Below, piece after piece: positions 21,428 to 56,903 of a stretch of DNA of 64,000 nucleotides. Numbering within the stretch: position 1 is the first letter of the stretch; the number at the start of each line of letters is the position of its first letter. The stretch is taken from contig PAAR01000029.1 of assembly GCA_002699085.1 (NCBI GenBank), forward strand, positions 1,249 through 65,248, given 5' to 3'. A program made the translations under genes and the position numbers. The notes beneath the pieces were generated by a model. It did not search any database and was not told where the DNA came from. It worked only from the letters and a program-made list of their open reading frames with translations. The stretch is from Micavibrio sp. (GTDB lineage Bacteria; Pseudomonadota; Alphaproteobacteria; Micavibrionales; UBA9664).

Positions 21428-21967
21428 TTAAATAAATTTTTTGAGCGCGGCCTTGTGGGCTTCAGTTAAAACCCCTTCGCCGCGCCATAGAATTTTACCA
21501 TTATTGTCTAATAATAATGTGTAAATACGATCAGGACTCATATCCATGATCTCAAAAAATTTCTCACGATCTGTATATACCGTAATCGTCCGTGTACGTG
21601 CCTCATCACTTGGTATACCTGAGCGCATACCATTATTAATCCACCAACGATACGCTGGATTTATCTCATAAATGAGCGGTACTTCATAAAAACGGAAATC
21701 TTCATCAGCGGCCTCTAGCTCTTCTGCATAAGAAATCCAAGTATCAATCTCTGCCTGATCTTCTCGTTGAAATCCAATAGTGACGAGGTTTTTTTCACCT
21801 TCAAAAGCATCAGGTAGTAGCTGTTCACTGCCTTGCAAATCTATGCCCGTCATAGCAGGAAACATGCCTTGGGCTTTGCTTTCTACTGGTGAGTTAACAC
21901 CTGCACCAATACAAGCTGACAACAATAGACAAAGACTAAAAACACATAAATACTTCATAAAAATCAC
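21428..21967 (-). CDS. hypothetical lipoprotein, last gene of the icmB operon
   Basis: Lipobox LLLSAC after a hydrophobic signal; the start may be ATG 21958 (MKYLCVF...). Its start abuts or overlaps the stop of the upstream ORF. The fold looks thioredoxin-like but has no CxxC; this is a weak impression only. Confidence 0.55.
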   Translation of the reverse strand: MIFMKYLCVFSLCLLLSACIGAGVNSPVESKAQGMFPAMTGIDLQGSEQLLPDAFEGEKNLVTIGFQREDQAEIDTWISYAEELEAADEDFRFYEVPLIYEINPAYRWWINNGMRSGIPSDEARTRTITVYTDREKFFEIMDMSPDRIYTLLLDNNGKILWRGEGVLTEAHKAALKKFI

Positions 21968-22539
21968 TATCTTTCATAACTAAACGAGGGATCAAGTGGC
22001 AACATCTTGCGGTCTTTAGCGGCCTCTATATCCGTGTTATAACCTTCAGGCGTTTGAGTATCCATATCCGTTTGAAGAATAAATGGCAAATAATCAGAAA
22101 CATTTTTATACGCTGCTTTCGGTAAATCTTTGCCATCTTGTGCCACTGATTTGATATAGGGACGGCCATCCTTAATGTCAAATAAGCAATAAATGAGGTG
22201 TAAACGCTCATCCCCAAAAGAATTGCGGCGAGAATAATAGATTGTTGCTGAATTAGGCGTCTCACCAGAAGCTAGGATATCGACAGATGATGGATATTCT
22301 GCCAGTTCTTCAATAACAACTTTACAAGCACCATACCGCCACTCACCATGTGGTACATAAAGTAATGAAGAGATCACAAAATAAAGACCAAGAACCACAA
22401 TTGTAACTAAAGCGGTCACGATTTGAGTGGCACGATCAGTTTTAAGCCTCTGCCAAAACATATCAAAAGCCTCAAACATTACAGCTAAACGTGATTTTTT
22501 TACTGAATTATCTACTTCATCACTCATAGCAAACCTCAC
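21967..22539 (-). CDS. hypothetical single-pass membrane protein, translationally coupled to icmB
   Basis: 190 aa with one TM helix (IVTALVTIVVLGLYFVISSLLYV). The start overlaps the icmB stop by 4 nt. No recognisable family. Confidence 0.55.
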   Translation of the reverse strand: MRFAMSDEVDNSVKKSRLAVMFEAFDMFWQRLKTDRATQIVTALVTIVVLGLYFVISSLLYVPHGEWRYGACKVVIEELAEYPSSVDILASGETPNSATIYYSRRNSFGDERLHLIYCLFDIKDGRPYIKSVAQDGKDLPKAAYKNVSDYLPFILQTDMDTQTPEGYNTDIEAAKDRKMLPLDPSFSYER

Positions 22540-25523
22540 GAGGCTCGTTCAATACGTGCTTCAGCTTTCATCACCAAATCAACCAACTCATTGACAATCT
22601 CATCAATAACTTCTGATGTTACTGCAGCGCCCGTTTTACCACCTTCGGCTTTCAAATAAAGGCGACGTTTAATCTCTGCGCTAGCCGATCCACCAGGAAA
22701 ACTAGCCGCCAAAGCACGTCTTGCACGCTGAGCGCCTAAACGGGCATATAAACGATTTCGGACACCCACATCTTCCGTTGATGTTGATAAAGCCCATAAT
22801 TCGATCGGCCCTAATGTATTAATAAGATGCTGTTCATAACGCCCATCTTTACTCCCCAAAACAAACAAACATGGTGCACCGCCGCTTCTTGGGCCCGTTA
22901 ATTGATAACGAATAATGTTTCGTGCCGTGTCCGACAAACCGAAACGCTCTTGTGCTCGATCAATAGCAGACTCAGAAATCGCCGTGCCTAAAATCCAAAC
23001 ACCTGTCGCCAAATCAACCATGTCATCAGAGAAATCATCAATGAGTTGAGAAGACAGAACAATCTGGACAGAACGTTTACGTCCTTCACGTACGTCACGT
23101 ACGACCTGCGTACGTACAGCTGGCGATTTACTTGTTCGATGAAATTCATCATAACACAAACGCTTCGGCGTCTCTGCTAAATCCTGCAGTTTAAGCTCAT
23201 GGTAATGACGATATTTTTCTGGAATAAATTCAAGATTTTCTTTAGCCATCCACCATGAACGTACAAGCGCATGACGTGCCAGCATATACATGATCGCAGT
23301 TTGGCGATCCGCTGTTGCATCACCTTGAGGTGCAACATCCATTAAATCTAGAGAACATACACGTGCATCTGTAATCTCAAACTTTGTCACAGCCGATACA
23401 ATAGGAAATTCACGAATAGCAGATGTTATCATACGTTCAAACGCATTCACGACATTCTCAACTGATGCACCGATCGAGGTTTCCTCTAATAATGAACGAA
23501 TTTGCGGACGGCGTGCGGCGACGATAGAATCAGCTAGAACAGGTACAGCATGGCGTTGCGCTAGATTAGCCAAATGATATTGGCCAAGCTCAAAGAATTT
23601 ATCGACAACATCCCACCAATACGGATCTTTTGGAAGATGCACATTATGCTTACGCAAAGCCTCATCCACCTCTTCGTCAATACGTGGCAGGTAAGGCCGT
23701 GCCTCAGCCCCTGCTTTTGTATCATCGCGCCAGCGGTACATTTCATCAACCACCATACCCGCCAATTGCTGGATACCGTCATAAGGCTCTTCTTTGCCTG
23801 CCGGCGTACATAATAGCGTTAAAAGCTCAATTAAATAGGCTCGCTCATCCGCCAATGGGTAACGGCAGCCTAATTGTGTATCGAAAGGGTTAATAGCGTA
23901 TTCACTACTCATCTGCAAACGGTAATAAGCGGCCTCGTGCTTACGTTCAGGGGGTAAAGCTTCTTTTATCAGTGATATAAGTCCAGAAGAAGACGGTCCA
24001 ATATCGATAATAGCGACATAAGGCAGCTTTGAGAGGCCCGCCCCCATACATGTCCCTAAATTCAGCGTATTCATCAACACAGATTTACCAGCGCCAGGCT
24101 GTGCAAAAATAAGGTCAAACCATGTATTGGTCATTGATGACCCTGTTTGATAAGGCCAGACCTTACCATCTGGTGAGCGTAATATGATCGAACCTTTATC
24201 AAAAGGACTTGACGGACGCTGCCACGGAATGAGCTTAAAGACTTCATAAAGAGGCGCAATTGCAGCTGGTGCAGTAGAAGCACAGGCAATCCCCATAGAT
24301 GATGACATGATCGCATCAAGCGGATCACCAATCATATTTGACACTTGGCAATATCCCCAACTCTCTACCGCTTGCATCAAAATCGAAATACGGTCTTCCA
24401 TCAGCTCTGTATTCCCTTTGGGTGCCCATGTTGCCAAAGATACACGCATACGTACAACAGGTTCTGAACGGGCGACCGCTGCTAAAGAATTAATAGAATT
24501 TTGTATTTGTTTATTTTGAGAGTTCGTGACTGCTAAAATTGAAGCAATAGATGCTTTCGTTGTTGCGCCTTGAATACCACCGCTTTCAATCAGATACGAA
24601 ATTCTAAAAGGAATACCTGATTCAAACAATCTATTCATCAGCATGGGAAAAGGACTAGGATCCATGGGCGCTAAGGTTAGGTCGCACCCGCCCCATAGCA
24701 TATTATCCATCTCAATAAATTGGTTACTCACTTTCTCCGCAGCAGAAACCGCTAACTGCGTACGCAGTGGTGGCCATAAAATATCAGCCATATCAGTGGC
24801 TGAGCGAGGCGCACGGGGCGGAATGGGATCACCAGGCACACAAGCACGCCAGCCATCATTAGCCCGAGAAGGAAACATACATGTACGTACAGCTGCCAAA
24901 GCGTCATGCACTTCTAGTAAGTCAGCACGAATACCCATTTCATCCAGTGCTGACAAGAAACCTGTTACATACGTTGTATGCCGTGTTTGCAGCCCCTCAA
25001 GACCTGTTTCAGGGCTTTGTGCTTCCCCGACATTATACTTAGCCTTTTTCTTAGCAAGCTTTGCGGCACGCTCTAATTCAGGCTTGGTCATTGATGAAGG
25101 GCGTGTCCAAAGCACGTAATAATTATCTTCTTGCACTAAAAATCGTGATAAATGACGTTTTTTCTCGTCAATAAGGTCATCAAGTTCCAAGCCAATATTT
25201 TGAGTCGCCTCTTTACTACTTGATGTCAATTTCTCCATTTCACGGCGCATACGCTGCGGATTGCGCGAAAAGAAAATTTGAAGGGCATGGCCTGGCTTAT
25301 CAAAACGAGACCCCAGCTTTACGGTCGCTGCTTCGATTAAAAATTTATATTCTTCATCGCCAATAATTTGGCGAGACCCATCAACTTTAATATAAGAAAC
25401 CAACGATCCATCTTCGGCAATAATTGTCGTCTCGTCTTGGGTCGATTCAAGACGAATAAAGGATTCAACAGGATGTTTTGAGGCCATAAGAAAAGGCGTC
25501 AAATATTTGCTATACCATGACAT
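22536..25523 (-). CDS. icmB: type IVB secretion ATPase IcmB/DotO (R64 TraU-like)
   Basis: 995 aa with Walker A FAQPGAGKSVLMN. Its size and its position directly after icmJ match IcmB/DotO. Confidence 0.85.
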   Translation of the reverse strand: MSWYSKYLTPFLMASKHPVESFIRLESTQDETTIIAEDGSLVSYIKVDGSRQIIGDEEYKFLIEAATVKLGSRFDKPGHALQIFFSRNPQRMRREMEKLTSSSKEATQNIGLELDDLIDEKKRHLSRFLVQEDNYYVLWTRPSSMTKPELERAAKLAKKKAKYNVGEAQSPETGLEGLQTRHTTYVTGFLSALDEMGIRADLLEVHDALAAVRTCMFPSRANDGWRACVPGDPIPPRAPRSATDMADILWPPLRTQLAVSAAEKVSNQFIEMDNMLWGGCDLTLAPMDPSPFPMLMNRLFESGIPFRISYLIESGGIQGATTKASIASILAVTNSQNKQIQNSINSLAAVARSEPVVRMRVSLATWAPKGNTELMEDRISILMQAVESWGYCQVSNMIGDPLDAIMSSSMGIACASTAPAAIAPLYEVFKLIPWQRPSSPFDKGSIILRSPDGKVWPYQTGSSMTNTWFDLIFAQPGAGKSVLMNTLNLGTCMGAGLSKLPYVAIIDIGPSSSGLISLIKEALPPERKHEAAYYRLQMSSEYAINPFDTQLGCRYPLADERAYLIELLTLLCTPAGKEEPYDGIQQLAGMVVDEMYRWRDDTKAGAEARPYLPRIDEEVDEALRKHNVHLPKDPYWWDVVDKFFELGQYHLANLAQRHAVPVLADSIVAARRPQIRSLLEETSIGASVENVVNAFERMITSAIREFPIVSAVTKFEITDARVCSLDLMDVAPQGDATADRQTAIMYMLARHALVRSWWMAKENLEFIPEKYRHYHELKLQDLAETPKRLCYDEFHRTSKSPAVRTQVVRDVREGRKRSVQIVLSSQLIDDFSDDMVDLATGVWILGTAISESAIDRAQERFGLSDTARNIIRYQLTGPRSGGAPCLFVLGSKDGRYEQHLINTLGPIELWALSTSTEDVGVRNRLYARLGAQRARRALAASFPGGSASAEIKRRLYLKAEGGKTGAAVTSEVIDEIVNELVDLVMKAEARIERAS

Positions 25524-25578
25524 GCTGTAATGATTATAAACTGATTTTACAAAGAGGTGAAAGCCTAACTATTAAAAA

Positions 25579-26298
25579 CTACGCAGCTTTTACGTCGTGA
25601 AACAGCTCTTTATAGCGGCTAAGCCATTTATTAGGCATTAAACCGCCAAATGCGCCATCTTTTGAGCGCCAATACGCATTAATTTGCGGATATTGGTTAA
25701 ATTCGTAGTCGCCTTCTTTAATAATACGACGATCAAGCGGCATTAGACGAACACCTTGAAGCTTTCTCATACGCTCTGCATAATGTCGCTCTTCCAGATA
25801 GTCGCTCAATATAGAGGCCAGCACTGCCGGATCATCAGTTCCCAACCTTGCTTTTGCCTCTTCACGACGTGCCATAAGACTATCAATAGTTTTTTTAGCT
25901 TGTGTCGCCACATCTCCTTGAGAAATACGCGCCACATAAAGGGCACGTGCCACATTATTAAGCACTGCTTGTGATACTTCTGGCAGCCATATTAATACGC
26001 CTGATTTCATTGTCGCCACAGCATCTAAATGGAAACATTGATGACAAAAAATACATAATGTCATCAGATTATCCGATGCATGATCGTTCTGATTACCGTT
26101 TTTAGCATGAATTTTTTGATATTTTTCAGAACGGAAACCGCAGCATTGGCAGCTATATTTGTCACGTTCTAATATTTTGAGCTTTTGCTCGGGTGTTAAT
26201 AAATCTTCAAAATTAACAGCCTGCTTATGATAGGCCTGCACCGATTGTGCTGATGCGTTTTTACGCTGAACATCAAAACTAATCGGTGCAAATGCCAT
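25579..26298 (-). CDS. icmJ: IcmJ/DotN (R64 TraT-like) zinc-binding T4BSS protein
   Basis: Cys cluster ERDKYSCQCCGFRS...HAKNGNQNDHASDNLMTLCIFCHQCFHLD matches the DotN Cys/His motif pattern. It sits between icmD and icmB. Confidence 0.8.
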   Translation of the reverse strand: MAFAPISFDVQRKNASAQSVQAYHKQAVNFEDLLTPEQKLKILERDKYSCQCCGFRSEKYQKIHAKNGNQNDHASDNLMTLCIFCHQCFHLDAVATMKSGVLIWLPEVSQAVLNNVARALYVARISQGDVATQAKKTIDSLMARREEAKARLGTDDPAVLASILSDYLEERHYAERMRKLQGVRLMPLDRRIIKEGDYEFNQYPQINAYWRSKDGAFGGLMPNKWLSRYKELFHDVKAA

Positions 26299-26324
26299 AA
26301 TTTATATATACCGATTCTCGACTA

Positions 26325-26717
26325 TTAGCCGCCGATTGAATCAAGCGGTTTATAGGTGATACCTGTGCCTTCAGTCACACCCATTGTGTCAAGAACACCT
26401 TTAAAGGCAACAGGGGCAACTAACAACAATGCACCAGCTATCAAGCGCACCAAACCATTACGAATTGGCTCACGTGATGGATCATCAACATGCTTCTTCA
26501 ACGCCAGAATACCGCCAGCTGCCATAATAGCACCACCAATATACAATACCGCCGAAATCAATTGAGGTATATTGTCTAAGCTTGATCTACTTTTCTGAAC
26601 CATATTATCGAGACTTGCGCTACTTTGAGCGAAAACCTCTGTAGAAAAAGTTCCTGCCGTAAAACCACCGATAACTGCGGCTGATAGTCTTTGGCCTTGT
26701 ATTTTTAGTGCTTTCAT
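26325..26717 (-). CDS. icmD: IcmD/DotP-like small inner-membrane T4BSS protein
   Basis: 130 aa: signal/TM, then a helix-loop-helix with the loop KKHVDDPSREPI. It is a paralog of the modules in the upstream ORF, and its size and position match IcmD. Confidence 0.7.
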   Translation of the reverse strand: MKALKIQGQRLSAAVIGGFTAGTFSTEVFAQSSASLDNMVQKSRSSLDNIPQLISAVLYIGGAIMAAGGILALKKHVDDPSREPIRNGLVRLIAGALLLVAPVAFKGVLDTMGVTEGTGITYKPLDSIGG

Positions 26718-26757
26718 AGTATTTCTCCTTTTCTATTACGCCCTAATTCATTAAATT

Positions 26758-27762
26758 CTATTGGAATAGTAACCCATTCGCAGGATCTAATCCAAAGGTT
26801 TGTTGAACCGCATTAACAAACGGCCCAATATTCACGGCTATCACCCCTGCAATAATATGACTAAATGCCGACATTGCAGTTGCTTGGCCGTTTCCATCCG
26901 CCACTGATCTAAGAATAAACCAACCACGGAAGAAACTAATAACGCCAATAATAATAAGAAAGCTCTCGATCGCTGTCATAATCGCTTCAGCACGCGCCTT
27001 CAGATCAGCATCCATGCCAGCACCATCGGCAAAAACAGGGTTCGTTACTATGCCTGCATCGCCAAATAAAGTAGACGAAATACCACTCAATGCTTGTGGC
27101 GCAGAAAGCAATATAGCTGCCAAAAAGAAACTCATCACTGTCCCGAGACCTAATGGTCCACGAGGACCCTGATCCATGCTTTTTGTCAGGCGGAAAATAG
27201 CATTCATCAACACAAATATACCCGCAACATAACTAAAGGCACTTAATAGCATTAAGCTTGGACCATAGATATCCGAAGATAACGACATCAACATGCCATC
27301 AACAGTACCAACCTGACCACCTTTAAGTCCTTCGAGCCCTAAATCAAGCGCATCACCATCGGCCAAACCAAAGGTTCTGACGGCTATACCTGCAAGTGCA
27401 GGGAGTGCTATAAAAAAGGCCCCCGCAAATAAATAACGAATAGGTGTATTAATTGGCTCACGTGACGGATTATCAACGTGCTTAACAAAATTCAACAGGC
27501 CATAGGCACAAAAAACGAGACCCATAAGATAAGAAACGGCACTAAAAAGCAGCGGAAAATTAGTTAAATTCTCGGTAAGAGTACTCATCATCCCACCCAA
27601 AGTTGTGGCATCTCCACCGCCGGCATTAACTGCTGAAAAAGCACTAAGCGGTAGCGCAAAAGGCGACACGGCATAAGCATCAGCTGCACTCAATAAAGTG
27701 GCCGCCACTAATGTCGTCAAAAATAGTAAGAAATGAATGCTCTGCATTCTTAGCGTACTCAT
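26758..27762 (-). CDS. icmC: IcmC/DotE-like membrane protein built from three IcmD-like modules
   Basis: 334 aa from ATG 27762 (signal peptide ...LLSAADAYA). It has three repeats of a two-helix module; the first loop, KHVDNPSREPI, is almost identical to the IcmD loop. Confidence 0.65.
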   Translation of the reverse strand: MSTLRMQSIHFLLFLTTLVAATLLSAADAYAVSPFALPLSAFSAVNAGGGDATTLGGMMSTLTENLTNFPLLFSAVSYLMGLVFCAYGLLNFVKHVDNPSREPINTPIRYLFAGAFFIALPALAGIAVRTFGLADGDALDLGLEGLKGGQVGTVDGMLMSLSSDIYGPSLMLLSAFSYVAGIFVLMNAIFRLTKSMDQGPRGPLGLGTVMSFFLAAILLSAPQALSGISSTLFGDAGIVTNPVFADGAGMDADLKARAEAIMTAIESFLIIIGVISFFRGWFILRSVADGNGQATAMSAFSHIIAGVIAVNIGPFVNAVQQTFGLDPANGLLFQ

Positions 27763-27958
27763 CTTATCCCTTTTCACACTCTCATTCGTATTTATATAAA
27801 ACACGATAATTATACGTTATTTTCACGCAAAAAAAAGCTCTGAAAATAAATCCTCATTACATAAGCTTTTCACAAAGCCTACACCCTATGAAGAATTTTA
27901 GACATAAAACATTAATAAACAATTAAATCTTGTTCATTTTTATATCTATTACACTAAA

Positions 27959-29656
27959 TTACTGAGTTATTTGGCCTTGCGAGGCACTCACGATCCATCG
28001 GCCATTATTAAGAGCGATACTCTTAATCGTGCCCAAACCTTCCAATTGATCGCCAACAGAAACCTGTTTAAGGGTGCTATTACCCTGACGTGATACCCAT
28101 GCCTGATTTGGTGATGCCGCTCGCAACTCCCATTTCACTGCAGGCTTTTGTGCAACGGGCTGTGTACGTGTAATTGATTTCGTTGAGTTAGATACTACAG
28201 ATGGTTTCGAATGTGACACAGAAGACTGACTTACCTTTCGCTCTAAACCTGATACCTTTTTGTTTAAAGCCTCAATACTATTAGCCAACTTCTGGTAATC
28301 AGCGGACGACTCGGCAGAAACGCCCTCACTATTAATTTTTTGCTCAACCGCTTCTATACGCTCGACAAAAGCTGCTGTTTGCTTTTCAAAACGTGCCATG
28401 TTTTCTGTCAAAGTTTCTGCCAATATTACCAATTCTTGGTTACTACCTCTCGGCTTAGGCTTTGAGACCATTTCTGCTTCGGCCTCTGCTTTACCCATTT
28501 TTTCAGCTGTTGTCTCTATCGATTGCAGTTCCGCTAAAGCCTCAGCTTTATTTTGCTGTTCAATTTCTTTTGGTTTTGCATCACCAAAGGGCGCAGGCAA
28601 TGATAATGCATCATTAAAGCCATCATTTGTACCTTTAGGTTGATACGGCTCAAAGTCAGACATCCTGTCACCTTGCGGTTGTGCAGTAATATCTGCAGGC
28701 GCTGCGTTATCGTTAACTGCCTGCTGCGACGACAATAATGGCGCCAAAGGCTCTGCATTCACATTAGTAGTTGGAACAGCCATCTCGTTCGAAATCGGCG
28801 TCGGTGACGGCAGTCCACCTAAACTTTGTCTTTCGCCAAAATCAGCGACTTGATTCGTATTTGCTAATTGTTGAGACACTGTTTTAGGCGCAGGAACATC
28901 TCGGATTTGACTTTCTAACGCATCAAGATCATCTAGTGTATTACGCTGCAATTGCTTATCCTGTTTGGTCGCTAAGGTCCCTGAATTTAAAATGCCAGAG
29001 AGCGTTTGCGGCTCTTGCGATTGGAGCATTTGATTTTGCTGTTGTTGCTGGGCATTGGCTAATTGCAGCGTTTGTTGCGATTGAGTGTCACCACCCGAGA
29101 ATAATGTTAAATATCCAATAATTATCACAATGAAACCCACCACACCGTAAACAGCGTAGTTAAAGAGTTTTGCATTACCACCACCAAACAGCGCTGACAA
29201 AGGACTACCTGCGTGAGGTTTCTGCTCACCTTGATTAAAATCAGACGAATCAGAAGATACTTCTTCTTGAGGCTTTTCATCCACCCATTCATCATCTGAT
29301 GGAAATTCAGCTTCAGCATCCTCTCCTGATTCAACATGCGCTTCAGGAAATTCAGAATCTTGGAATTCTGAAAACTCAGCATCAATAGGCTCTTCCATGG
29401 CTGGATCTATATAAAAATTATCCTCCAAGAATTCAGCATCATCGAAGGTATCAAATTCATCGAAAGCTTCATCAGGAATGTAATTTTCTGAGAAATTATC
29501 GGTAAAGTCACCTACCTCTTCAGGAGCAGGCATTTCAGGTTCAGACTGATTGGCTTCAGAGTCCACACCTTGTGCTAAATCATCAAAAGCTTGTGAGCCA
29601 GCATTTTCTTGTTCTGACTGCGTTTCATCTTCTGGCTTTTGCGGATCGTCACTCAT
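27959..29656 (-). CDS. icmG: IcmG/DotF-like protein, expanded (acidic N-terminus, TM, Q-rich and coiled-coil regions)
   Basis: Position between icmE and icmC. It has a single TM (NYAVYGVVGFIVIIIGYLTLF). The C-terminal domain WELRAASPNQAWVSRQGNSTLKQVSVGDQLEGLGTIKSIALNNGRWIV resembles the DotF C-terminus. Confidence 0.65.
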   Translation of the reverse strand: MSDDPQKPEDETQSEQENAGSQAFDDLAQGVDSEANQSEPEMPAPEEVGDFTDNFSENYIPDEAFDEFDTFDDAEFLEDNFYIDPAMEEPIDAEFSEFQDSEFPEAHVESGEDAEAEFPSDDEWVDEKPQEEVSSDSSDFNQGEQKPHAGSPLSALFGGGNAKLFNYAVYGVVGFIVIIIGYLTLFSGGDTQSQQTLQLANAQQQQQNQMLQSQEPQTLSGILNSGTLATKQDKQLQRNTLDDLDALESQIRDVPAPKTVSQQLANTNQVADFGERQSLGGLPSPTPISNEMAVPTTNVNAEPLAPLLSSQQAVNDNAAPADITAQPQGDRMSDFEPYQPKGTNDGFNDALSLPAPFGDAKPKEIEQQNKAEALAELQSIETTAEKMGKAEAEAEMVSKPKPRGSNQELVILAETLTENMARFEKQTAAFVERIEAVEQKINSEGVSAESSADYQKLANSIEALNKKVSGLERKVSQSSVSHSKPSVVSNSTKSITRTQPVAQKPAVKWELRAASPNQAWVSRQGNSTLKQVSVGDQLEGLGTIKSIALNNGRWIVSASQGQITQ

Positions 29657-49811: not shown

Positions 49812-49913
49812 CTGTCTATCTATTGTTTTACTTAACGAATCTTATCTTAGCTTACACAGGGTTACGGCTTCCGACAAACAGAATTTTTAGATTTTTCACT
49901 TTAAATAATATGT

Positions 49914-51320
49914 TTAGCGAATAATATGACGTGTTTCGATCACTATAACAGCAGGACCATCTGGCTCATTTGGATGCAATCTTGCGATCGGGCGAGGCTG
50001 CGCCTCACTGAAACCCTTCAGCAAAACTTCAACAACTTCTTCAAATGTGCCCTGCAAACTGACATCAGACTCAAGAGGGTAGTCGTAATCAGCTCGCCAA
50101 TATAACTGAACACCCGCCTCTTTCGACCATGATTCAAGGACTTGGCGTAGTGTTAAGTTTCGTGGCGCTGTCCATGTTTTGATCGTTGTATCATAATCAA
50201 CCATCTCAACAGAAGAACGCTCATTTAGGTTATCAAGCGCATAAAGTGCTGACGAAACTGTTTTGTTCGACCCAAAATTTTCAAGTGCTGAATGACGTGT
50301 TGCACTTGGCATAATTTGTACGGTTTTTCCTGCAATTGACGCTGTTAAGTTTTTCGGTGCCAACATAGAATCCAGCACCTGATTCCAAGGCTTGCCACCT
50401 TCCCACGAAACAGTTTGGGATACATCGACCCCCTCAGCGTAGATCAAAGAATAATCACTTGGAACAATTTGTGATAAAGCAATCGGCAAAGGCATACCTT
50501 TACCAAACCCAACAGCAACAGCATATGATCCAGCTGGTGCGTCCATTTGTTGTGAGACAATAGGTTGCATGCGTTGAGGCGCTGCCAATGTCGCTGTTTG
50601 TACTGACGCACGCGGCATTGAATTATTCATATAAGGTCCAGAAAATCCTGTTGCAGGAATAGGCGCAGATGCCGAAGATGGTACTGGACGACCAAATAAA
50701 AATCCTTTTTGCTCTGATGGTTTTGCTGTTAAGCCAAATGGAAACGGGTTTAATGAGACGATAGAACGTTTCTTCTCTTCTTCTGCACGGCGGCGTGAAA
50801 TTGACGGTGCAAAAGCATCACCTTCTACAGCAACTTCGGAATAAACAGGGATACTGGTCACCGCTTGCGGTGCAGCCATTTGCTGCATTTGCATAGGCTG
50901 TTGCGCAGGGGCTTCCATTACAGGCTGTTGCGCCATTTGCGCCCTTAGAGGCTGTGGCTCTGTTGATGAAAACGGCATAGAGGCTGGCTGCATCATTTGC
51001 GGTTGCGGTTGATACTGTTGTTGTGGCTGTTGCATAACAGGAGCCATTTGCATTTGTTGAACTGGCTGTTGGTACGCTTGCTGAGATTGCTGTCTGTAAT
51101 AATTATCTTGAGCACGAGATGGTGCCATCACAACAGGCAACGTATTTTGTACAATTGGCTGTGTCGGTGGAATGCGATTAATTTGCTGGCCCATTTGGCC
51201 CGATTGATTGTAGTTTGCCATTGGCGCAACAAACTCAAAACCAGCCTGCGCTTCATTTAGATTTATGCTCGCAGCACTTACCACTAAACCCATTACCAGA
51301 AAAACTTTTGAAAAACGCAT
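49914..51320 (-). CDS. pilL: PilL-like pilus protein with Q/P/M-rich spacer and TcpQ-like C-terminal domain
   Basis: Signal peptide and a long low-complexity Q/P/M region. C-terminus WTAPRNLTLRQVLESWSKEAGVQLYWRADYDYPLESDVSLQGTFEEVVEVLL is typical of the TcpQ/PilL domain. Confidence 0.55.
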   Translation of the reverse strand: MRFSKVFLVMGLVVSAASINLNEAQAGFEFVAPMANYNQSGQMGQQINRIPPTQPIVQNTLPVVMAPSRAQDNYYRQQSQQAYQQPVQQMQMAPVMQQPQQQYQPQPQMMQPASMPFSSTEPQPLRAQMAQQPVMEAPAQQPMQMQQMAAPQAVTSIPVYSEVAVEGDAFAPSISRRRAEEEKKRSIVSLNPFPFGLTAKPSEQKGFLFGRPVPSSASAPIPATGFSGPYMNNSMPRASVQTATLAAPQRMQPIVSQQMDAPAGSYAVAVGFGKGMPLPIALSQIVPSDYSLIYAEGVDVSQTVSWEGGKPWNQVLDSMLAPKNLTASIAGKTVQIMPSATRHSALENFGSNKTVSSALYALDNLNERSSVEMVDYDTTIKTWTAPRNLTLRQVLESWSKEAGVQLYWRADYDYPLESDVSLQGTFEEVVEVLLKGFSEAQPRPIARLHPNEPDGPAVIVIETRHIIR

Positions 51321-51409: not shown

Positions 51410-51700
51410 CTAGCCGTAGTCAATCAGCTTGTTACGGCGCGTGTGCATAAGTGCTGGGCGGTGATTGCCGACAATCCAACTCCGCAAAGCCCGTAAAGCA
51501 GAAGGCAATGTATAACCATTACGCTCAACCACATGAAACACAAAAGTAATAATAGCGCATAGATACACTGTCCACCAACGCATATAAAGCAATACAACAA
51601 GAAATGTCGAAGCGGCCCGTGCATCAAGTGCAAAGAACTTCAACGGCTTCATTGAATTCCGCCAATGCCAATCGCCTTCTGTTTCGATATTATTTGCCAT
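51410..51700 (-). CDS. icmT: IcmT (R64 TraK-like) small T4BSS membrane protein
   Basis: 96 aa. HWRNSMKPLKFFALDARAASTFLVVLLYMRWWT...GYTLPSALRALRSWIVG matches my recollection of the IcmT/TraK pattern. It follows dotB as traK follows traJ. Confidence 0.7.
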   Translation of the reverse strand: MANNIETEGDWHWRNSMKPLKFFALDARAASTFLVVLLYMRWWTVYLCAIITFVFHVVERNGYTLPSALRALRSWIVGNHRPALMHTRRNKLIDYG

Positions 51701-51733
51701 AGGTTCTAGGATATCACGCTTTGGGATATGCTT

Positions 51734-52885
51734 CTAGCTTATATTAGATAACATCAAATAATGACGTTTTTCGATCAAACCTGCTTCAAAGGCTTTTGAC
51801 GCTGATTGAGCCATGGTCTGACCGTAATTAGGCATCATGCGTTGTACTTCATTGGTCCAATCCTGGAAATCCATATCTAATAATTTTTCACGTACAGCAT
51901 CATCAAAATGCATCCATTCACGAATACCGATACGCCCACCACCAATTTTAGGCACAAGGGCTTGGGTGACAATCATTCGTAATGTTTCCATGAGTGCGGA
52001 AGCACGCTCTAAACGTTCCTCTGGATCAAAAGTTGAAATCATACGACGGATCGTTGTTGCGACACCTGTTGTGTGGGTTGTTGTATAGACAGCGTGGCCA
52101 GTTTGACCCGCTTCAATCGCCGCAGAGATTGTCTCCTTATCGCGTGCCTCACCTATCAGAATAATATTTGGTTTACGACGTAGAGCGTTCCGTACGCCAT
52201 GAGCAAAGCTATCTAAATGACGACCCACTTCGGTTTGCGACACCACAGAATGCGGTGATTGAATTGTGTCATAGGTATATTCGATCGGCGCTTCATAGGT
52301 CAGCATCTTACCGCACCCATTTGGCTGCTCTAAAAGCATACGATTCACGGCTGCCAATAACGTTGTTTTACCAGAACCCGTTGGGCCAGTAATAACTACC
52401 ATGCCTTGGCGTGGTGCAACATGTTTAATGATATCTTCTTCAATCCCTAACGCTTCCAATGTTGGTGGCTCGGTCGGCAACGTACGCATCGTAATTTGCG
52501 CTGCATCACGCCCCTTTGAAAGAATGGCTGTAATGTTCACCCGAAAACGCATGCGAGAATAACGATCAGGGCGTATCTCGTATGAAAGATCAAGATCTTT
52601 ACCAGAAGCCAAACGTGCTTGTGCTTCTGCACCGTAAATTTTGCTCAAGAAAATGGCCATATCGCCAGAATCAACAGGGCGGAACGTTGCTGGATACAAT
52701 TTACCACTAATATCATTATAGACAGGACGATCTGTCTGAATTGTTACATCAGATGCCCCTTGTGCCACGCACCAGCTCAATAATTTATCAACATGATCTT
52801 CAGTGAAACGATCTGGCTCATCAGGCCATAGCTGGCCTTCTGGATTTTCGCCTTTTTTCAAACTTATCGGTTTACGGGTTGCCAT
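51734..52885 (-). CDS. dotB: DotB (R64 TraJ-like) PilT/VirB11-family secretion ATPase
   Basis: Walker A GPTGSGKTT, IGEARD and the His box TGHAVYTTTHT. Adjacent to dotC and dotD. Confidence 0.85.
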   Translation of the reverse strand: MATRKPISLKKGENPEGQLWPDEPDRFTEDHVDKLLSWCVAQGASDVTIQTDRPVYNDISGKLYPATFRPVDSGDMAIFLSKIYGAEAQARLASGKDLDLSYEIRPDRYSRMRFRVNITAILSKGRDAAQITMRTLPTEPPTLEALGIEEDIIKHVAPRQGMVVITGPTGSGKTTLLAAVNRMLLEQPNGCGKMLTYEAPIEYTYDTIQSPHSVVSQTEVGRHLDSFAHGVRNALRRKPNIILIGEARDKETISAAIEAGQTGHAVYTTTHTTGVATTIRRMISTFDPEERLERASALMETLRMIVTQALVPKIGGGRIGIREWMHFDDAVREKLLDMDFQDWTNEVQRMMPNYGQTMAQSASKAFEAGLIEKRHYLMLSNIS

Positions 52886-53697
52886 TCTTCAGGTCTCGCT
52901 TGTAATTGTGATGGGCCAGTGATTTGTACAGCCCGATCCCCTATTCTAAGCTCATTTCCGCCACCTGTCACCCCACGTTCTTCGAGCAACGCAAAAGGCG
53001 CTGAAATAATATTCTGTTTCAATAATAAACGGTAACGTACCATACCTGTAAAATCACGGTTTAGTCGATCAAGGTCCGCTTGGAAGATATCATCCCCTTG
53101 CAAATAACCTTCTTCCCAGCCCTTTTCAACGTTTTCACGCCAAATAACACGCTCTTCATAATCTTTAGGCAATAATAAATCTGGTGGTGGCGTAACTTCG
53201 CCCCATTCACGCTCTAAATACGTCCGCCAGTTACGAGGCGCACCAACAATTTTGGCTTTTTGATTAATATTATACAAAACTTCGGCAATCGCTGCTGTTT
53301 GACCCTCGTTTTCAACAATGAACGCATCCTGACCTTCGGTCACGGTTGGCGGTTCAATAAATACACCCGATGGGCCTTTAATAAGTAAACGAGAAAAATC
53401 ATAGGTACGATCCATATAATTCCCTTTACCTTTAAGTTCTTGACGAATCTCATAGGTACGACGTGCCAAACCGCCACGTGCACCATAAGAAAGAGCGGCA
53501 TTCTTAATGGCATCCCGACGAATATTCGGCGCTTGCGGTTTGCCAGAAATGAGATCTTTCTCATTTTTAGGCTTCACATCTTGTAAATATTTTAAACTAG
53601 GCGGCGGTGGATTAATTGAGTCCTTAGCTTGCGCCATAGAAATGCTTACACCAAAGGAGAAAAGAACAGCAAAAACACCAACAAATAAGGGTTTCAT
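52864..53697 (-). CDS. dotC: DotC (R64 TraI-like) outer-membrane core complex protein
   Basis: Signal peptide. Conserved-looking block AIKNAALSYGARGGLARRTYEIRQEL. Position between dotD and dotB; the 3' end overlaps dotB by 22 nt. Confidence 0.75.
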   Translation of the reverse strand: MKPLFVGVFAVLFSFGVSISMAQAKDSINPPPPSLKYLQDVKPKNEKDLISGKPQAPNIRRDAIKNAALSYGARGGLARRTYEIRQELKGKGNYMDRTYDFSRLLIKGPSGVFIEPPTVTEGQDAFIVENEGQTAAIAEVLYNINQKAKIVGAPRNWRTYLEREWGEVTPPPDLLLPKDYEERVIWRENVEKGWEEGYLQGDDIFQADLDRLNRDFTGMVRYRLLLKQNIISAPFALLEERGVTGGGNELRIGDRAVQITGPSQLQARPEEWQPVNR

Positions 53698-54237
53698 CTA
53701 CCCCCCTGTTTTAGTTGTCATAGCAGGGTCATCAAGCGCTGATGGATAATAAAGCTCAACAACACGACGTTGTGCATCTACCTTTAACTGAGCCATAGAC
53801 CCTAATTGCAACCCAACATCACGCAACACATCAATCACTTGGCGATTACGAGAAGTAATTGTCACAACAATTGGTGTTGGTGGCACATTACCGAAACTTT
53901 GAAAGTTATAACTCGCTCGGTCAGCCAAAATACGGGCAACCTGCTCAACTGGACCATACCAATCAAGATTGATCGTACGGCGTAACTCTTGTGGAGCGGC
54001 TGGAATAGACGCAATATCAACTTCTGGGCTCGCCGCTTGCTCAACAGCTGCCAATGTCTCTAGTGAACGAGATGCACGGTCAGCGGCTTCTGCTAAACGC
54101 ACAGATACTGAGTCAGGACTTGCCACGAGTTGAGGATCTTCAACAGGCATAGGACGCAATGCACAGCCTGACAACAGCAAAATTGTCATGGCGGCTATAA
54201 GTAAATTATTTTGTTTCAACGATATTCTCATATGCAT
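53698..54237 (-). CDS. dotD: DotD (R64 TraH-like) lipoprotein of T4BSS core complex
   Basis: Lipobox LLLSGCA. C-terminal N0/secretin-like domain (PTPIVVTITSRNRQVIDVLRDVGLQLG...VVELYY). Immediately upstream of dotC. Confidence 0.75.
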   Translation of the reverse strand: MHMRISLKQNNLLIAAMTILLLSGCALRPMPVEDPQLVASPDSVSVRLAEAADRASRSLETLAAVEQAASPEVDIASIPAAPQELRRTINLDWYGPVEQVARILADRASYNFQSFGNVPPTPIVVTITSRNRQVIDVLRDVGLQLGSMAQLKVDAQRRVVELYYPSALDDPAMTTKTGG

Positions 54238-54327
54238 ATTTTATTGGCTTAACAACGAACCTCTTTAAAAACTAGACCCTAGCGATTTCCTCTATGGTAA
54301 ACAAGATTTTTTATTATGGGTAGAGGT

Positions 54328-54744
54328 TTATTCAATCGAAATCAGTCCTTTTTTTTGCAAGGCCTCGACAACCTTCTTTTTATAGCGTCTACCATAATAT
54401 GGCGTGCGTGAGTGATAATGGGCAATAGCTTGGGATAGAGACCCTGTTTCATTAATATGTTGGCGCAAGATCCAAGCCGAAACATTTATATTGGTACAAG
54501 GATCATCTTTAACCCAGCGGATAGCGGTTGCTTGGTCAACATTCCAATATTTAGCCAATTCGGGAATCCAAATTGTATTAATTTGCATTGGCCCCAAATC
54601 ATAACTACCATTTTTATTTTTAACGGCTTGGCCAACCTGACCGCCCTCAACGGTTTGAATACCCATTAAAACAGCTGGTGGCACTTGATACGTCTGCGAC
54701 GCAATGAACAGACATGATGCTAGAACCTGCGCTATCATACACAA
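54328..54744 (-). CDS. specialised lytic transglycosylase (SLT domain; IagB/VirB1/R64 PilT-like)
   Basis: Catalytic-Glu context GIQTVEGG, then YDLGPMQINTIW and AHYHS motifs. Confidence 0.85.
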   Translation of the reverse strand: MCMIAQVLASCLFIASQTYQVPPAVLMGIQTVEGGQVGQAVKNKNGSYDLGPMQINTIWIPELAKYWNVDQATAIRWVKDDPCTNINVSAWILRQHINETGSLSQAIAHYHSRTPYYGRRYKKKVVEALQKKGLISIE

Positions 54745-54753
54745 TCCTTTTGA

Positions 54754-55884
54754 TTACATACCACCTTTTTTCGCTCCGAAATAACCCATTGGATTTGCTT
54801 TAGGTGGCTTCAAATCTGGATTGACCTTACTTTTCTCTCCGCCACCACGACGCCCTTCTGAACCGTCATCATCTTCATCATCGTCTTTATCTTCACCAAT
54901 AATGGTTTTAGGTTTTGTAGCCCCACCCTTAGAAAAGAACGACATAGGATTGCCTAAAGCAGGTGCTTCTGATTCTTGCACTTTATTTGAGGATGCTTTT
55001 GTTGCTTTTAATGCCTCTTTTGGCGCAGCTTTCTCAGATGAGGAGGCTGACTCATCTTCTGGCGTCACCATTAGATTTTTTGTTAAAGCGACCATCAAGC
55101 CAGAACGCATTTCAAACATATGCCACAAGGTATCAAGTGATAATTCACCCGTTTTATTCATTGATTTTTCACGAAGTTTTTCATCCATTTCTTCATAGCG
55201 ACGTTTTTCCGCCATATGACATGACGCATATATATGCGTCAAACTACGCAAAACACCTAATTCAGAGAGCTTTTGATCGCTTATATCATCGGCACGACCA
55301 AATAAGGCGCGAGCAACAATCTTAGCACGTGATTGTAATTTCGTCGTAATCTCTGCCAGAAGTTCTTTATGGTCATGGCCAAAACTATATTCAGCCACAC
55401 GGATCACCACAGGTAACAACGCCTGCATTGCCTGTATTGTCATTTGATCTTCATCAAACACCAAACGATCAGAGACTGAGATTGGATCAGGGTTAGCCAA
55501 TCTTAAACGACGATTGGCCGCATCTTTTGCTTCTGCAAATTTATCAGTAAAATCTAAAATACCGTCAAAAACATCTGAGAACTGACCAATATCTTCATCA
55601 GATAAATCTTTACCAGTTTTTGCAAAATGCTCAGCTATAATAGGGCTCACCAAACAGGCCACCGCTAAACGCAGTGCATCGGCATCATCATTATTAGAAG
55701 GCTGAAAGCTATCAGATAGGGCCTTGCTCATTTTAATAGACGTACGCAAAAGTGAGGAAATTTGCGCCACATCATCGGCTTCAACAGCACCCTTTTTTTG
55801 ATATGAGCCACGCAACACTGCATTCATTAGCGGCGCAGCTAATTTCTCAAAAACCTTTATATTATAGAGTGTTTTACTATCCAT
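54754..55884 (-). CDS. hypothetical protein (helical N-region, charged low-complexity C-terminus), in dotD operon
   Basis: 376-aa ORF tightly packed between the dsbC-like gene and the SLT gene. The C-terminal tail is DKDDDEDDDGSEGRRGGGEKSKVNPDLKPPKANPMGYFGAKKGGM. No family recognised. Confidence 0.55.
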   Translation of the reverse strand: MDSKTLYNIKVFEKLAAPLMNAVLRGSYQKKGAVEADDVAQISSLLRTSIKMSKALSDSFQPSNNDDADALRLAVACLVSPIIAEHFAKTGKDLSDEDIGQFSDVFDGILDFTDKFAEAKDAANRRLRLANPDPISVSDRLVFDEDQMTIQAMQALLPVVIRVAEYSFGHDHKELLAEITTKLQSRAKIVARALFGRADDISDQKLSELGVLRSLTHIYASCHMAEKRRYEEMDEKLREKSMNKTGELSLDTLWHMFEMRSGLMVALTKNLMVTPEDESASSSEKAAPKEALKATKASSNKVQESEAPALGNPMSFFSKGGATKPKTIIGEDKDDDEDDDGSEGRRGGGEKSKVNPDLKPPKANPMGYFGAKKGGM

Positions 55885-55928
55885 GCCGCCCTTTTACCAC
55901 AAGCTGTGTCGTCTTAGCCAGTAAGATT

Positions 55929-56903
55929 TTATCCGTTCAAATCCTTTATAATCGCTGGAATGTCGCCAGGCACACCACGGATAATTTTCACTTCACCAGC
56001 GGCATTACGATAAAACATCATTGGTGTCACATCAAAACCCCACGTATTGATCGTCATTAAATTCCGATCAATCCCTTGCGTATTAACATTTCCAGACTTA
56101 CCAAGATCTTTTGCCTTACCTGTGATATAACTGTAATACAGCGTTTCCGCATCTCCAGCCACCAACATCAACGCCCCTACACGTTTTGTATCAAGCTCAA
56201 AGCCAACAGGCATAACACGCATTTCCAACATGTCATTATCTAAATATGGCTTAAACGCCAACATTGTTTCTTGGCAATGTGGGCAACCAGGATCAATCAT
56301 TGCATAAATCTCAGGCTTTGACACATCCCCAAAACTCACCCAATTAGCATTTTGTAAATCCTGCATTAATTTATCGCTCTTCGTTACTGCTTCAGCAGGC
56401 TCACGGGATGGAGACGGTGTCTTTACTACAGGTGCAGCATCTGCCGCCTTCACTTGTGAAGCAGGTGCTTCCGTATTTTGTAAATTATCTGTAATTTGTT
56501 TTGTCGCCTCAGTCGCCCGTGTCGTACGTTGACGATCTTTAATTAAGCGTGAAACTTCATTAAGCGTATCGAAACTATCTTCACCATCACGAATACGGAA
56601 ATCTTGTAGCTGTTTAAAAGTAAGGTTGTCGCCTTTTTCATTAAACATCATACCTTGAAAATATGTTTTTTGATCCTTTGTTGAGTAGGTAAACGTTGGC
56701 CTTCCCTTATCAAACACAACCCAGCCATCAAAATCTTTATACGGTCCTAAATAGCGAATTTGCGCGCCTTTTTCTTCCATAGGTTTTAATAATTCTGGTG
56801 TTTCTGGCACGACAAGCTTTTCTAATGTTGGCCATTCCTGCGATTGTACTGGCATCGCCAATAATAGAGCTAGAAAGAAACTTGCTAAAAATTTTACACG
56901 CAT
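55929..56903 (-). CDS. periplasmic thiol:disulfide interchange protein (DsbC/DsbG-like; analogous to plasmid TrbB)
   Basis: Signal peptide, thioredoxin-fold motif DPGCPHCQ and an N-terminal extra domain plus an Ala/Pro/Lys-rich linker. Confidence 0.75.
   Translation of the reverse strand: MRVKFLASFFLALLLAMPVQSQEWPTLEKLVVPETPELLKPMEEKGAQIRYLGPYKDFDGWVVFDKGRPTFTYSTKDQKTYFQGMMFNEKGDNLTFKQLQDFRIRDGEDSFDTLNEVSRLIKDRQRTTRATEATKQITDNLQNTEAPASQVKAADAAPVVKTPSPSREPAEAVTKSDKLMQDLQNANWVSFGDVSKPEIYAMIDPGCPHCQETMLAFKPYLDNDMLEMRVMPVGFELDTKRVGALMLVAGDAETLYYSYITGKAKDLGKSGNVNTQGIDRNLMTINTWGFDVTPMMFYRNAAGEVKIIRGVPGDIPAIIKDLNG

Follow-up and report, generated by a model that had tools for sequence, protein, structure and literature searches.

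Type IVB secretion systems (T4BSSs) have been described from IncI1 plasmids of the R64 type and, as Dot/Icm systems, from Legionella and Coxiella, where they are chromosomal, lineage-wide, relaxase-less and split over several loci, features held in common with the Micavibrio system considered here. Relaxase-less type-I pT4SSi have also been recorded in seven marine Micavibrionales genomes, in the survey reported with Ca. Comchoanobacter (Needham et al. 2022, PMC9418006), which for Micavibrionales gives the count only, with no architecture, pilus linkage, distribution, DotM-DotL locus or functional proposal; this was the only link found in a literature search for Micavibrio and T4BSSs, and the systems counted there, of the same class and habitat as the present one, probably belong to the same lineage. 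The locus described here occupies positions 21428-56903 of a 64,000-nucleotide stretch of DNA (the window; GenBank assembly GCA_002699085.1, contig PAAR01000029.1, positions 1,249 to 65,248 of the forward strand) from an uncultured marine 'Micavibrio sp.' metagenome-assembled genome (MAG), and consists of two minus-strand blocks of Dot/Icm-like genes separated by a type IVb (thin) pilus operon and a divergent pair of genes.

On balance, gene content and conservation favour the interpretation that most of a T4BSS is encoded here, a chromosomal system without relaxase (the 'pT4SSi' class), passed on vertically in the Micavibrio lineage and likely to inject proteins into bacterial prey. Components of the outer-membrane core (DotC, DotD, DotH, DotG and DotF) and of the inner membrane (DotI, DotE/DotP and IcmT), the ATPases DotO (IcmB) and DotB, and the coupling-complex subunit DotN are encoded in the window; for the other essential parts, DotM-DotL and DotA, relatives have genes elsewhere on the chromosome. 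Already known are the Micavibrionales pT4SSi (PMC9418006) and the routine use of the names IcmB and IcmO in public annotation; the class of T4BSS is likewise known, and the system is an essentially uncharacterised variant of it, lineage-wide, with its own accessory proteins and a coupling complex encoded near the replication origin.

The identity of the MAG agrees with the alphaproteobacterial-type host that a first-pass annotation, made from the letters alone, had proposed. NCBI taxonomy places Micavibrio under Bdellovibrionota and many related MAGs are labelled Alphaproteobacteria; the genome paper of M. aeruginosavorus ARL-13 treats the genus as alphaproteobacterial, comparing its integrases with those of 'other alpha-proteobacteria' (PMC3189940).

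A Dot/Icm-like system in two blocks

Genes were called from a six-frame listing of open reading frames (ORFs) and by profile searches (Pfam, NCBIfam/TIGRFAM, PDB). Relatives were drawn from an IcmB scan of one genome per species, which found 323 genomes with IcmB relatives, details being taken from the best 80 of the 323, and from a DotB scan of metagenomes comprising 80 loci at 63-82% identity (DotB-centred relatives); individual loci are given L numbers. Fifteen minus-strand ORFs were assigned to Dot/Icm–IncI Tra families, in blocks at 51410-56903 and 21428-33139, and all T4BSS ORFs are intact, with Walker and zinc motifs present. The profile searches suggested by the first-pass annotation reproduced all of its gene calls for the two blocks at the same coordinates, with scores far beyond chance, and these family assignments, together with core-gene flanks, confirm its description of a chromosomal Dot/Icm-like T4BSS. 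The first block comprises the following genes.

55929-56903, minus: periplasmic DsbG/DsbC-like thiol-disulfide isomerase, TrbB-like, with a signal peptide (NF008657 1.1e-24, below cutoff)
54754-55884, minus: orf376, of no family; cytoplasmic and all-helical, with a disordered charged tail bearing two NPM[SG][FY]F motifs
54328-54744, minus: SLT lytic transglycosylase (PF01464 2.3e-9)
53698-54237, minus: DotD/TraH outer-membrane lipoprotein (PF16816 1.9e-30; lipobox at residues 22-25)
52864-53697, minus: DotC/TraI core-complex protein (PF16932 3.9e-74)
51734-52885, minus: DotB/TraJ hexameric ATPase (TIGR02524 405 bits, E 3e-121; Walker A GPTGSGKT)
51410-51700, minus: IcmT/TraK small inner-membrane protein (NF038220 94.4 bits, cutoff 40)

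The DsbC/DsbG-like gene, first of the block, gives a weak match to IncI TrbB (E 0.003) and has homologs in 41 of the 80 DotB-centred relatives. The nearest IncI counterpart of the SLT protein is PilT (28% identity, 1.7e-10), and its median identity is 62% across 52 relatives. DotC matches the DotC chain of PDB entry 6x62 at 128 bits and IncI TraI at 29% identity (1e-34), while the DotB score lies just below the TIGR02524 equivalog cutoff of 463; icmT directly follows dotB, as in IncI. The product of orf376 found no match in Pfam, NCBIfam or PDB profile searches and gave a single-sequence AlphaFold2 model of low confidence (pLDDT 41), yet its gene is conserved upstream of that for SLT in 35 of the 80 DotB-centred relatives; an assignment to TraF by position was rejected (hhalign probability 0.1). 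The second block is as follows.

32444-33139, minus: DotI/IcmL/TraM (PF11393 1.1e-59)
31228-32325, minus: DotH/IcmK/TraN outer-membrane core protein (PF12293 6.6e-82; PDB IcmK chain 169.8 bits)
29656-31200, minus: DotG/IcmE/TraO, VirB10-like (TrbI domain PF03743 1.5e-12, residues 262-438)
27959-29656, minus: DotF/IcmG/TraP-like bitopic protein (NF038218 2.4e-10, below cutoff, C-terminal region only)
26758-27804, minus: polytopic fusion of a DotP/IcmD-like N-half and a DotE/IcmC/TraQ C-half (TraQ_IncI1 4.9e-11, residues 171-339)
26325-26717, minus: DotP/IcmD/TraR-like small membrane protein (weak TrbC/VirB2 match, weak IncI TraR match; position)
25579-26298, minus: DotN/IcmJ/TraT, zinc-binding coupling-complex subunit (NF038221 105.2 bits, cutoff 100)
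22536-25523, minus: IcmB/DotO/TraU, VirB4-family ATPase of 995 aa (IncI TraU 27% identity over 966 aa, E 4e-102)
21967-22539, minus: orf190, a single-helix membrane protein directly after icmB, with two invariant cysteines and homologs in 40 of 80 relatives
21428-21967, minus: orf179, a lipoprotein (lipobox at residue 16)

DotG (514 aa) has one N-terminal transmembrane helix, as the DotF-like protein has one helix, the position of the latter between icmE and icmC being kept in relatives. The TraQ score of the DotE fusion protein falls below cutoff; the protein also matches DUF6750 (9e-7), has seven transmembrane helices, and over residues 66-150 is 38% identical to the product of the adjacent DotP/IcmD-like gene, so that its N-half is paralogous to that protein. 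The DotP-like gene occurs in one to three copies among relatives, with tandem copies in L003 and L012. The cysteine cluster of DotN comprises C50, C52, C53, C82, C85 and C88. IcmB is 100% identical to NCBI MAS88077.1 'IcmB [Micavibrio sp.]', NCBI and JGI naming agreeing on IcmB; its Walker A motif QPGAGKS is invariant among relatives, and it found no sequence match in PDB. At the end of the block, orf179 has no homolog among 80 relatives and is species-specific. Two candidates were rejected: orf190 as TraV by position (hhalign probability at most 1%), and orf82 (33143-33391) as a TraL-like gene, which has no homologs and overlaps the signal-peptide-coding start of a 627-aa gene.

DotL, DotM and DotA at other loci

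The first-pass annotation had remarked that the window holds no DotA, DotL/DotM or relaxase, and searches with IncI queries and with lineage-specific DotA, DotM and DotL queries agree: DotA, DotL and DotM were not found in the window, nor, with the IncI queries, were TraW, TraX, TraY, TrbA and TrbC. Near IcmB in 80 relatives, IncI queries (TrbA, TrbC, TraY, TraW, NikB and others) matched almost nothing. The missing parts are not, however, absent from the lineage, being located at other chromosomal loci in relatives, although DotL and DotA first surfaced in DotB-centred metagenome loci only. Starting from a TrbC-like fragment in L099, 227 homologs of DotL/IcmO were found in alphaproteobacterial MAGs and in 'Bdellovibrionales' MAGs; the best model match of the lineage DotL is the TrbC conjugation model (383 bits). 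The order in L173 and L174 is a 198-aa gene, DotM (PF23127; NF033890 6e-47), a 192-aa gene, DotL (764 aa) and a 241-aa gene, and this DotM-x-DotL-x arrangement stands directly beside argS-gyrB-recF-dnaN-dnaA, a position also seen in L171 and L175-L177. Overall, DotL/DotM were found in L171, L173-L177, L099 and ARL-13 (GMV_383/385). A 1072-aa protein of the DotA/TraY family (TIGR04346, 258 bits against a cutoff of 100) is encoded in L170, 6 kb from dotD-C-B.

The text of the ARL-13 genome paper reports no type IV secretion system (PMC3189940), and its supplementary file 4 lists GMV_385 (1215 nt), GMV_384 (582 nt), GMV_383 'icmO' (2583 nt) and GMV_382 (768 nt), which adjoin argS, gyrB, recF, dnaN and dnaA in the synteny of L173. 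With the expression columns calibrated by GMV_287 against Table 2 of PMC3189940, the indices for attack and attachment phases are 4.3 and 3.5 for icmO and 1.7 and 3.0 for the DotM-sized gene; the locus is transcribed during attack, a phase in which most housekeeping genes read close to zero, as well as during attachment. GMV_1708 (2994 nt, hypothetical) would fit IcmB in size but lies in a flagellar cluster.

A further arrangement was observed in L172 (1-14384), where the genes clustered around that of a more distant DotL relative (46%) encode IcmW (PF23130), DotM_C, MobA_MobL, an ankyrin-repeat protein and a prepilin peptidase, a fuller Dot/Icm-like set; L172 may belong to another lineage.

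Conservation and chromosomal residence

The best 80 IcmB relatives, at 63-78% identity, are all Micavibrio-like bar one evidently mislabelled contig, and include complete chromosomes of 2.3-2.5 Mb. The icmL-K-E-G-C-D-J-B block recurs among them, and the DsbC-like gene, orf376, SLT, dotD, dotC, dotB and icmT are conserved across DotB-centred loci; the two blocks are conserved but differently linked, or unlinked, between genomes. One genome has only icmC-D-J-B and an orf190-like gene together, amid unrelated housekeeping genes, and in L067 the first block with a PilL-like gene directly abuts icmC-D-J-B. The flanks are retained in part, a Bax-inhibitor gene recurring in 18 of 80 loci and a DEAD-box helicase adjoining icmB in the relative at 78% identity. 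Conservation of the T4BSS proteins equals or exceeds that of the flanking genes, DotB having 76% identity where the Bax inhibitor has 45-50%; the pattern argues for long chromosomal residence under purifying selection.

One contig, L078 (DATJGZ010000019.1), carries a complete icmL-to-icmB block (IcmB 64%) under the label 'Patescibacteria group bacterium', probably a binning error; several DotL matches labelled Magnetococcus, Accumulibacter and Leadbetterella resemble this case of mislabelling.

The window was extended by 10 kb on each side via GCA_002358745.1, which holds identical sequence, and both extensions contain core genes only: cytochrome bd, EF-Tu, EF-G, S7 and S12 on the left; RNase E, def, fmt and truA on the right. 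GC content is 0.39-0.47 across the whole window, with no shift, in keeping with the housekeeping flanks of similar composition that had been judged by eye. The single tRNA, tRNA-Ala (63214-63289), lies 6 kb beyond the first block, the intervening 6 kb being filled with housekeeping-type genes. With IncI queries, a relaxase, NikA and NikB gave no match beyond noise at E<=1 in the window, where no integrase, oriT proteins or repeat boundaries were found either, and no relaxase or NikA occurs within the 10-kb extensions; promoter/terminator, Rfam and repeat scans of the window gave nothing decisive. The relaxase, oriT and element boundaries that would mark an integrated IncI plasmid or integrative and conjugative element (ICE) were found neither in the window nor in the 10-kb flanks, and the locus is not an integrated plasmid.

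IncI-like content, Legionella-like sequence

The order icmL-K-E-G-C-D-J-B and the order dotD-C-B are alike in Legionella and IncI. Because both orders are common to the two systems, gene order discriminates little, and the earlier suggestion that the blocks follow IncI order rather than that of Legionella stands in part: some gene content is indeed IncI-specific, whereas the order is weakly diagnostic and the sequences are nearer Legionella. Specific to IncI are the position of icmT directly after dotB, the DsbC/TrbB-like gene, the lack of icmM/N/O/P/Q/R/S between icmT and icmL, and the presence of an R64-type pil operon in the same region. Against this, DotB scores 405 bits with the TIGR02524 DotB model and 251 bits with the TIGR02525 TraJ model, and 371 bits with PDB 6geb as against 203 bits with 6gef, the two solved DotB structures, from L. 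pneumophila and Yersinia. DotI scores 105.5 bits with PDB DotI 3wz4 and 48.9 bits with R64 TraM 3wz3; DotN, 84 bits with PDB IcmJ(DotN) and 36 bits with TraT. The gene content is IncI-like and, by these matches, the sequences are closer to Legionella Dot/Icm.

Set against the IncI1 R64-type system, the Micavibrio subunits correspond one-to-one to TraH, I, J, K, M, N, O, P, Q, R, T and U, and icmT after dotB, a TrbB-type gene and a pilL-N-O-P-Q-R-S-V operon within the T4BSS region are common to both; the traK|traL-M junction, which in Micavibrio holds the pil operon, has an insertion in IncI1 too, of nuc and sog. The Micavibrio system differs in being chromosomal and dispersed over at least three loci; in having no NikA/NikB relaxosome, oriT, Sog, ExcA, TraE/F/L/S/V/W/X, Rci, shufflon or PilI/K/M/T/U (BLAST with IncI queries gave no match in the window for Sog primase, ExcA, TraE/F/L/V/W/X or Rci); in a protein identity of only 21-43%; and in three separate large pilin genes, in place of the shufflon-switched PilV tails of IncI.

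With Legionella and Coxiella, the dotD-C-B and icmL-K-E-G-C-D-J-B orders and the DotN and DotM_C-type parts of the coupling complex are common, and similarity is higher (DotB 371 bits, DotI 105, DotH 170, DotC 128, DotN 84). Pfam and NCBIfam searches, in agreement with the reported lack of IcmQ/R/S/W-type adaptors and DotK, found none of IcmS, IcmW, LvgA, IcmQ, IcmR, DotK, DotJ, DotU, IcmF, IcmV or IcmX in the window or beside DotM-DotL in close relatives, IcmW being seen only in the distant L172. The Micavibrio system differs further in its short DotG, its embedded thin-pilus operon, proteins of its own (orf376, orf190, the PilL-like protein and the secreted 627/523-aa pair described below) and its hosts, which are bacterial predators and not intracellular parasites of eukaryotes.

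Among plasmids, the closest IcmB (44% identity, 20001-22940) is borne by the Methylorubrum extorquens AM1 megaplasmid NC_012811 (L002), with a DotL homolog (42%) at 40780-42162, about 18 kb away; no other window-like T4BSS gene was found within 20 kb of that IcmB, which suggests another dispersed or reduced alphaproteobacterial T4BSS.

A thin-pilus operon between the blocks

The pilus genes that the first-pass annotation had placed between the blocks were likewise recovered by profile searches; together with the divergent pair they occupy 33294-51320.

49914-51320, minus: PilL-like secreted protein with STN and TcpQ domains (PF07660 1.7e-8, PF10671 6.4e-13)
48252-49811, minus: PilN secretin (Pfam Secretin)
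46738-48105, minus: PilO (Pfam PAP_PilO only; no direct IncI match)
46157-46741, minus: PilP (TIGR03021; IncI match over only 49 residues)
44536-46110, minus: PilQ ATPase (Pfam T2SSE; IncI match)
43459-44532, minus: PilR platform protein (Pfam T2SSF; IncI match)
42872-43411, minus: PilS major pilin (Pfam PilS/Bundlin/N_methyl; IncI match)
40714-42747, minus: 677-aa prepilin-like protein with a prepilin leader
39209-40714, minus: PilV-like protein of 501 aa with a prepilin leader
37803-39215, minus: PilV-like protein of 470 aa with a prepilin leader
36760-37782, minus: 340-aa secreted protein within the pil region, with no assigned function
33294-36745, plus: secreted paralog pair of 627 aa and 523 aa, with signal peptides, sharing a promoter region with icmL

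The order is that of R64 (pilL,N,O,P,Q,R,S,V), and PilL, N, P, Q, R, S and V were matched to the IncI plasmid at 23-43% identity. These matches, with those to Pfam and TIGRFAM, establish that in this genome the T4BSS is split by a type IVb pilus operon, as had been described. The merged T4BSS-plus-pilus architecture singled out at the time is real as a linkage and is not new, IncI plasmids carrying pilI-V beside traE-Y. The split is also clade-specific: pilN follows the PilL-like gene in only 6 of 80 DotB-centred loci. Four close relatives, L093, L095, L097 and L098, have the same pil operon behind the PilL-like gene (PilQ 72%), whereas the pil genes of L152 and L166 are far more divergent (PilQ 32%) and their T4BSS proteins no more so. 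Either most genomes have lost from this site an operon that was ancestral and IncI-like, or the operon was repeatedly inserted behind pilL.

The PilL-like protein (27% identity to IncI PilL across the TcpQ region) is encoded after icmT in 49 of the 80 DotB-centred loci, most without pilN-S there, so that it looks like a regular partner of the T4BSS in the Micavibrio lineage and may be a T4BSS component of that lineage rather than a pilus protein. In PDB it weakly matches a 'Lipoprotein' of 114 aa, of which entry 9u5s contains 17 copies.

The large pilin region matches Shufflon_N (2.7e-8 and 2e-5) and N_methyl (5e-6), and the prepilin leaders of the three large pilins read G|FTLIELL, G|LTLLELL and G|FSLAVML; identity between the PilV-like pair is 26%. 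The operon carries one major pilin and three large tip or minor pilins, which would serve adhesion. Searches of the window gave no Rci recombinase (IncI queries) and no multi-copy sfx-like inverted repeats or shufflon-like repeats; IncI queries for PilM, PilU and Rci were without match there, a PilT-like SLT occurring only in the first block, and the prepilin peptidase must be supplied from elsewhere in the genome. A 20-nt inverted repeat at 42804-42847 (85% complementary, 4-nt loop), 3' of pilS and 5' of the 677-aa pilin-like gene, may be an attenuator setting the ratio of major to minor pilins.

The divergent 627/523-aa pair, 35% identical over the C-terminal 185 aa, found no match in Pfam, NCBIfam or PDB; homologs lie upstream of dotI in L003/L004 and several further relatives. 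Identification of the pair as TraW/IcmX by position was rejected (hhalign probability at most 1% against TraW).

In ARL-13, GMV_1930-1939 include a secretin (1785 nt), a hypothetical gene (1632 nt) and a type II/IV ATPase (1842 nt) (PMC3189940, supplementary file 4), with genes of 1221, 996 and 531 nt and a prepilin peptidase; the sizes and order are like those of pilN-O-Q-R-S, and this may be a relocated type IVb pilus operon.

A motif shared by orf376 and DotL

The motif [NGSD]PM[SGA][FY]F occurs twice in orf376 (codons near 54948 and 54792) and nowhere else in the window in any frame. It was found 58 times in 2.8 Mb of related loci, nearly all in two classes, the extreme C-terminus of orf376 homologs and the tails of DotL homologs, against a chance expectation of about 1e-6 per residue; it lies 7-22 residues from the C-terminus in 23 of 25 aligned orf376 homologs, and in the DotL C-terminal tails of L092, L096, L099 and L173-L177 (positions L173:12050; L175:12119; L099:19666; L092:20212, 20386; L096:20268, 20463). 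IncI TrbC and other IncI Tra proteins do not contain it. From the shared motif, orf376 and the tail of DotL may have a binding partner in common; the motif could, in this lineage, take the place of the IcmS/W-type docking at the DotL tail, or could act as a recognition signal, and orf376 would then be a lineage-specific adaptor or cargo, docking where the DotL tail docks. The conserved N-terminus of IcmB, MSFxxKFLxPF, resembles the motif.

Neighbouring genes

Two genes from the T4BSS, at 57830-58915, is a gene with a glycosyltransferase family 29 (GT29; sialyltransferase-type) motif (PF00777 2e-15), from a typically eukaryotic family. In L010, another assembly of the same species, a 586-aa ORF replaces the GT29 gene and an adjacent helix-turn-helix gene, so that the spot is strain-variable. 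On the other side, at window positions 10159-17842, lie genes for a 625-aa protein whose N-terminus is rich in Arg and Ser and for two membrane proteins of 365 aa, all three without a family match; they come before a thioredoxin gene and genes for cytochrome c biogenesis of the ResB/CcsA type (System II). The ARL-13 gene table has CcmA-F (System I) in place of System II.

Proposed function and alternatives

Because the genes are dispersed over at least three fixed loci, are strongly conserved and include a DotN/DotM-type coupling complex, the machine is read as one that translocates proteins, its predicted function probably being contact-dependent protein injection. Bacterial prey would be the most likely target, since cultured Micavibrio are obligate epibiotic predators of Gram-negative bacteria (PMC3189940). 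By analogy with the R64 thin pilus, which keeps recipients near during mating in liquid, the pilus with its large adhesive pilins would attach to the surface of a target cell and keep that cell in place. Proteins, not DNA, would then pass into the cell through the T4BSS, for which DotB, DotO and DotL would supply the energy; with bacterial prey as target, the system would be a candidate attack or feeding apparatus. Held more tentatively, and rather doubtful as a whole, is the full proposal of an attack or feeding apparatus of Micavibrio-type epibiotic predators, in which the pilins would capture prey, the T4BSS would inject proteins and docking through the NPMSFF motif of orf376 and DotL would replace IcmS/IcmW. 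The X-T4SS of Xanthomonas, Stenotrophomonas and Lysobacter, as cited in PMC12428579, would be a functional analogue, injecting toxic proteins into bacteria on contact; it differs in being of the VirB/D4 type IVA, with XVIPCD effector signals and homology limited to the VirB4, VirB10 and type IV coupling protein cores, and its target is bacterial, whereas the bacterial target of the Micavibrio system is a proposal.

Several observations weigh against injection into bacterial prey. No substrate, effector or target has been identified, and function is drawn from homology and the lifestyle of cultured relatives; DotA, DotL and DotM are shown for relatives, not for the source genome. In ARL-13, expression of icmO is modest (index 3-4) and not phase-specific, and when the gene table was searched as far as GMV_2037 for IcmB and DotB, by gene length and by words in the annotation, the icmO locus alone came up. 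The pil operon contains no PilU prepilin peptidase, PilM or PilT-type gene. The source, moreover, is an uncultured marine MAG, and every characterised chromosomal T4BSS acts on eukaryotic cells (PMC11338181, PMC8896642).

These last two points favour the main rival reading, that the target cells are eukaryotic (protists or algae) and receive effectors from this machine, in the manner of Legionella, Coxiella and the choanoflagellate associate Comchoanobacter; on this view many Micavibrio-like MAGs would be eukaryote-associated and not predators of bacteria. The greater closeness of DotB, DotI and DotN to Legionella than to IncI fits this reading, and the GT29 sialyltransferase-like gene and the ankyrin-repeat gene near DotL in L172 count for it and against bacterial prey, to which may be added IcmW next to DotL/DotM in L172 and a Fic gene near DotL in L175. 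The Ank, Fic and GT29 genes are, however, single occurrences; the L172 DotL is only 46% identical and perhaps of another lineage; no IcmS/W/Q/R was found in the window or next to DotM-DotL in L173-L177; and the cultured species are obligate predators of bacteria, among which ARL-13 has the icmO locus. A eukaryotic target is possible and rather unlikely.

A DNA-transfer machine, conjugating or mobilising chromosomal DNA or integrated elements with relaxases encoded elsewhere and the thin pilus stabilising mating pairs, is improbable. The IncI-type gene content and pil operon, and the TrbC conjugation model as best match of DotL, accord with it, and the Dot/Icm system of Legionella is able to mobilise RSF1010. 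Relaxase genes do occur near the coupling complex: a MobA_MobL gene near dotL in L172 and, at 5331-7015 in L175/L176/L177, a 429-aa relaxase (PF03432) with a NikA-like gene, 1.5 kb from dotM. The nearest homologs of the latter relaxase, 77-94% identical, are in Nitrospira and Nitrosomonas, and it adjoins an IS1595 transposase, a Fic gene and DUF3800; on account of these homologs and the IS1595 neighbour it was rejected as a part of the machine and is assigned, from its sequence relationships, to recently mobile cargo, a mobilisable element that perhaps exploits the T4BSS for its mobilisation. Neither the window and its flanks nor the surroundings of DotM-DotL in L173/L174 and ARL-13 yielded a relaxase or NikA; the window has no Sog primase, ExcA exclusion or shufflon genes, and genes over at least three loci, fixed amid housekeeping genes, cannot move as a unit.

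An integrated, known IncI-type plasmid or ICE, or its decaying remnant, is highly improbable: the IncI-like order, DsbC/TrbB-like gene and R64-type pil operon would accord with one and the tRNA-Ala could in principle be an attachment site, but identity to IncI and to the best plasmid IcmB is low (21-43% and 44%), the tRNA lies 6 kb from the T4BSS, integrase, relaxase and repeat boundaries were not found, GC is uniform, all ORFs are intact, and at least 80 related species retain the system with conserved flanks under strong purifying selection.

Significance for Micavibrio and type IVB systems

How Micavibrio kills and 'leeches' its prey is unexplained, and an intact, lineage-wide T4BSS offers a testable candidate, the best yet for the attack of these predators on other cells; of its genes, the cultured predator ARL-13 has, and transcribes, at least the icmO locus. 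If the proposal of an attack or feeding apparatus is true, it would be the first T4BSS with a known bacterial target. The NPMSFF motif provides a handle on substrate or adaptor docking. The system also represents an intermediate form of type IV secretion system outside Gammaproteobacteria, combining IncI-like content and pilus linkage with Dot/Icm-like sequence and the loss of the relaxase, and so is relevant to the domestication of conjugation machines as protein injectors and to the question which parts, such as the IcmS/W adaptors and DotU/IcmF, came later.

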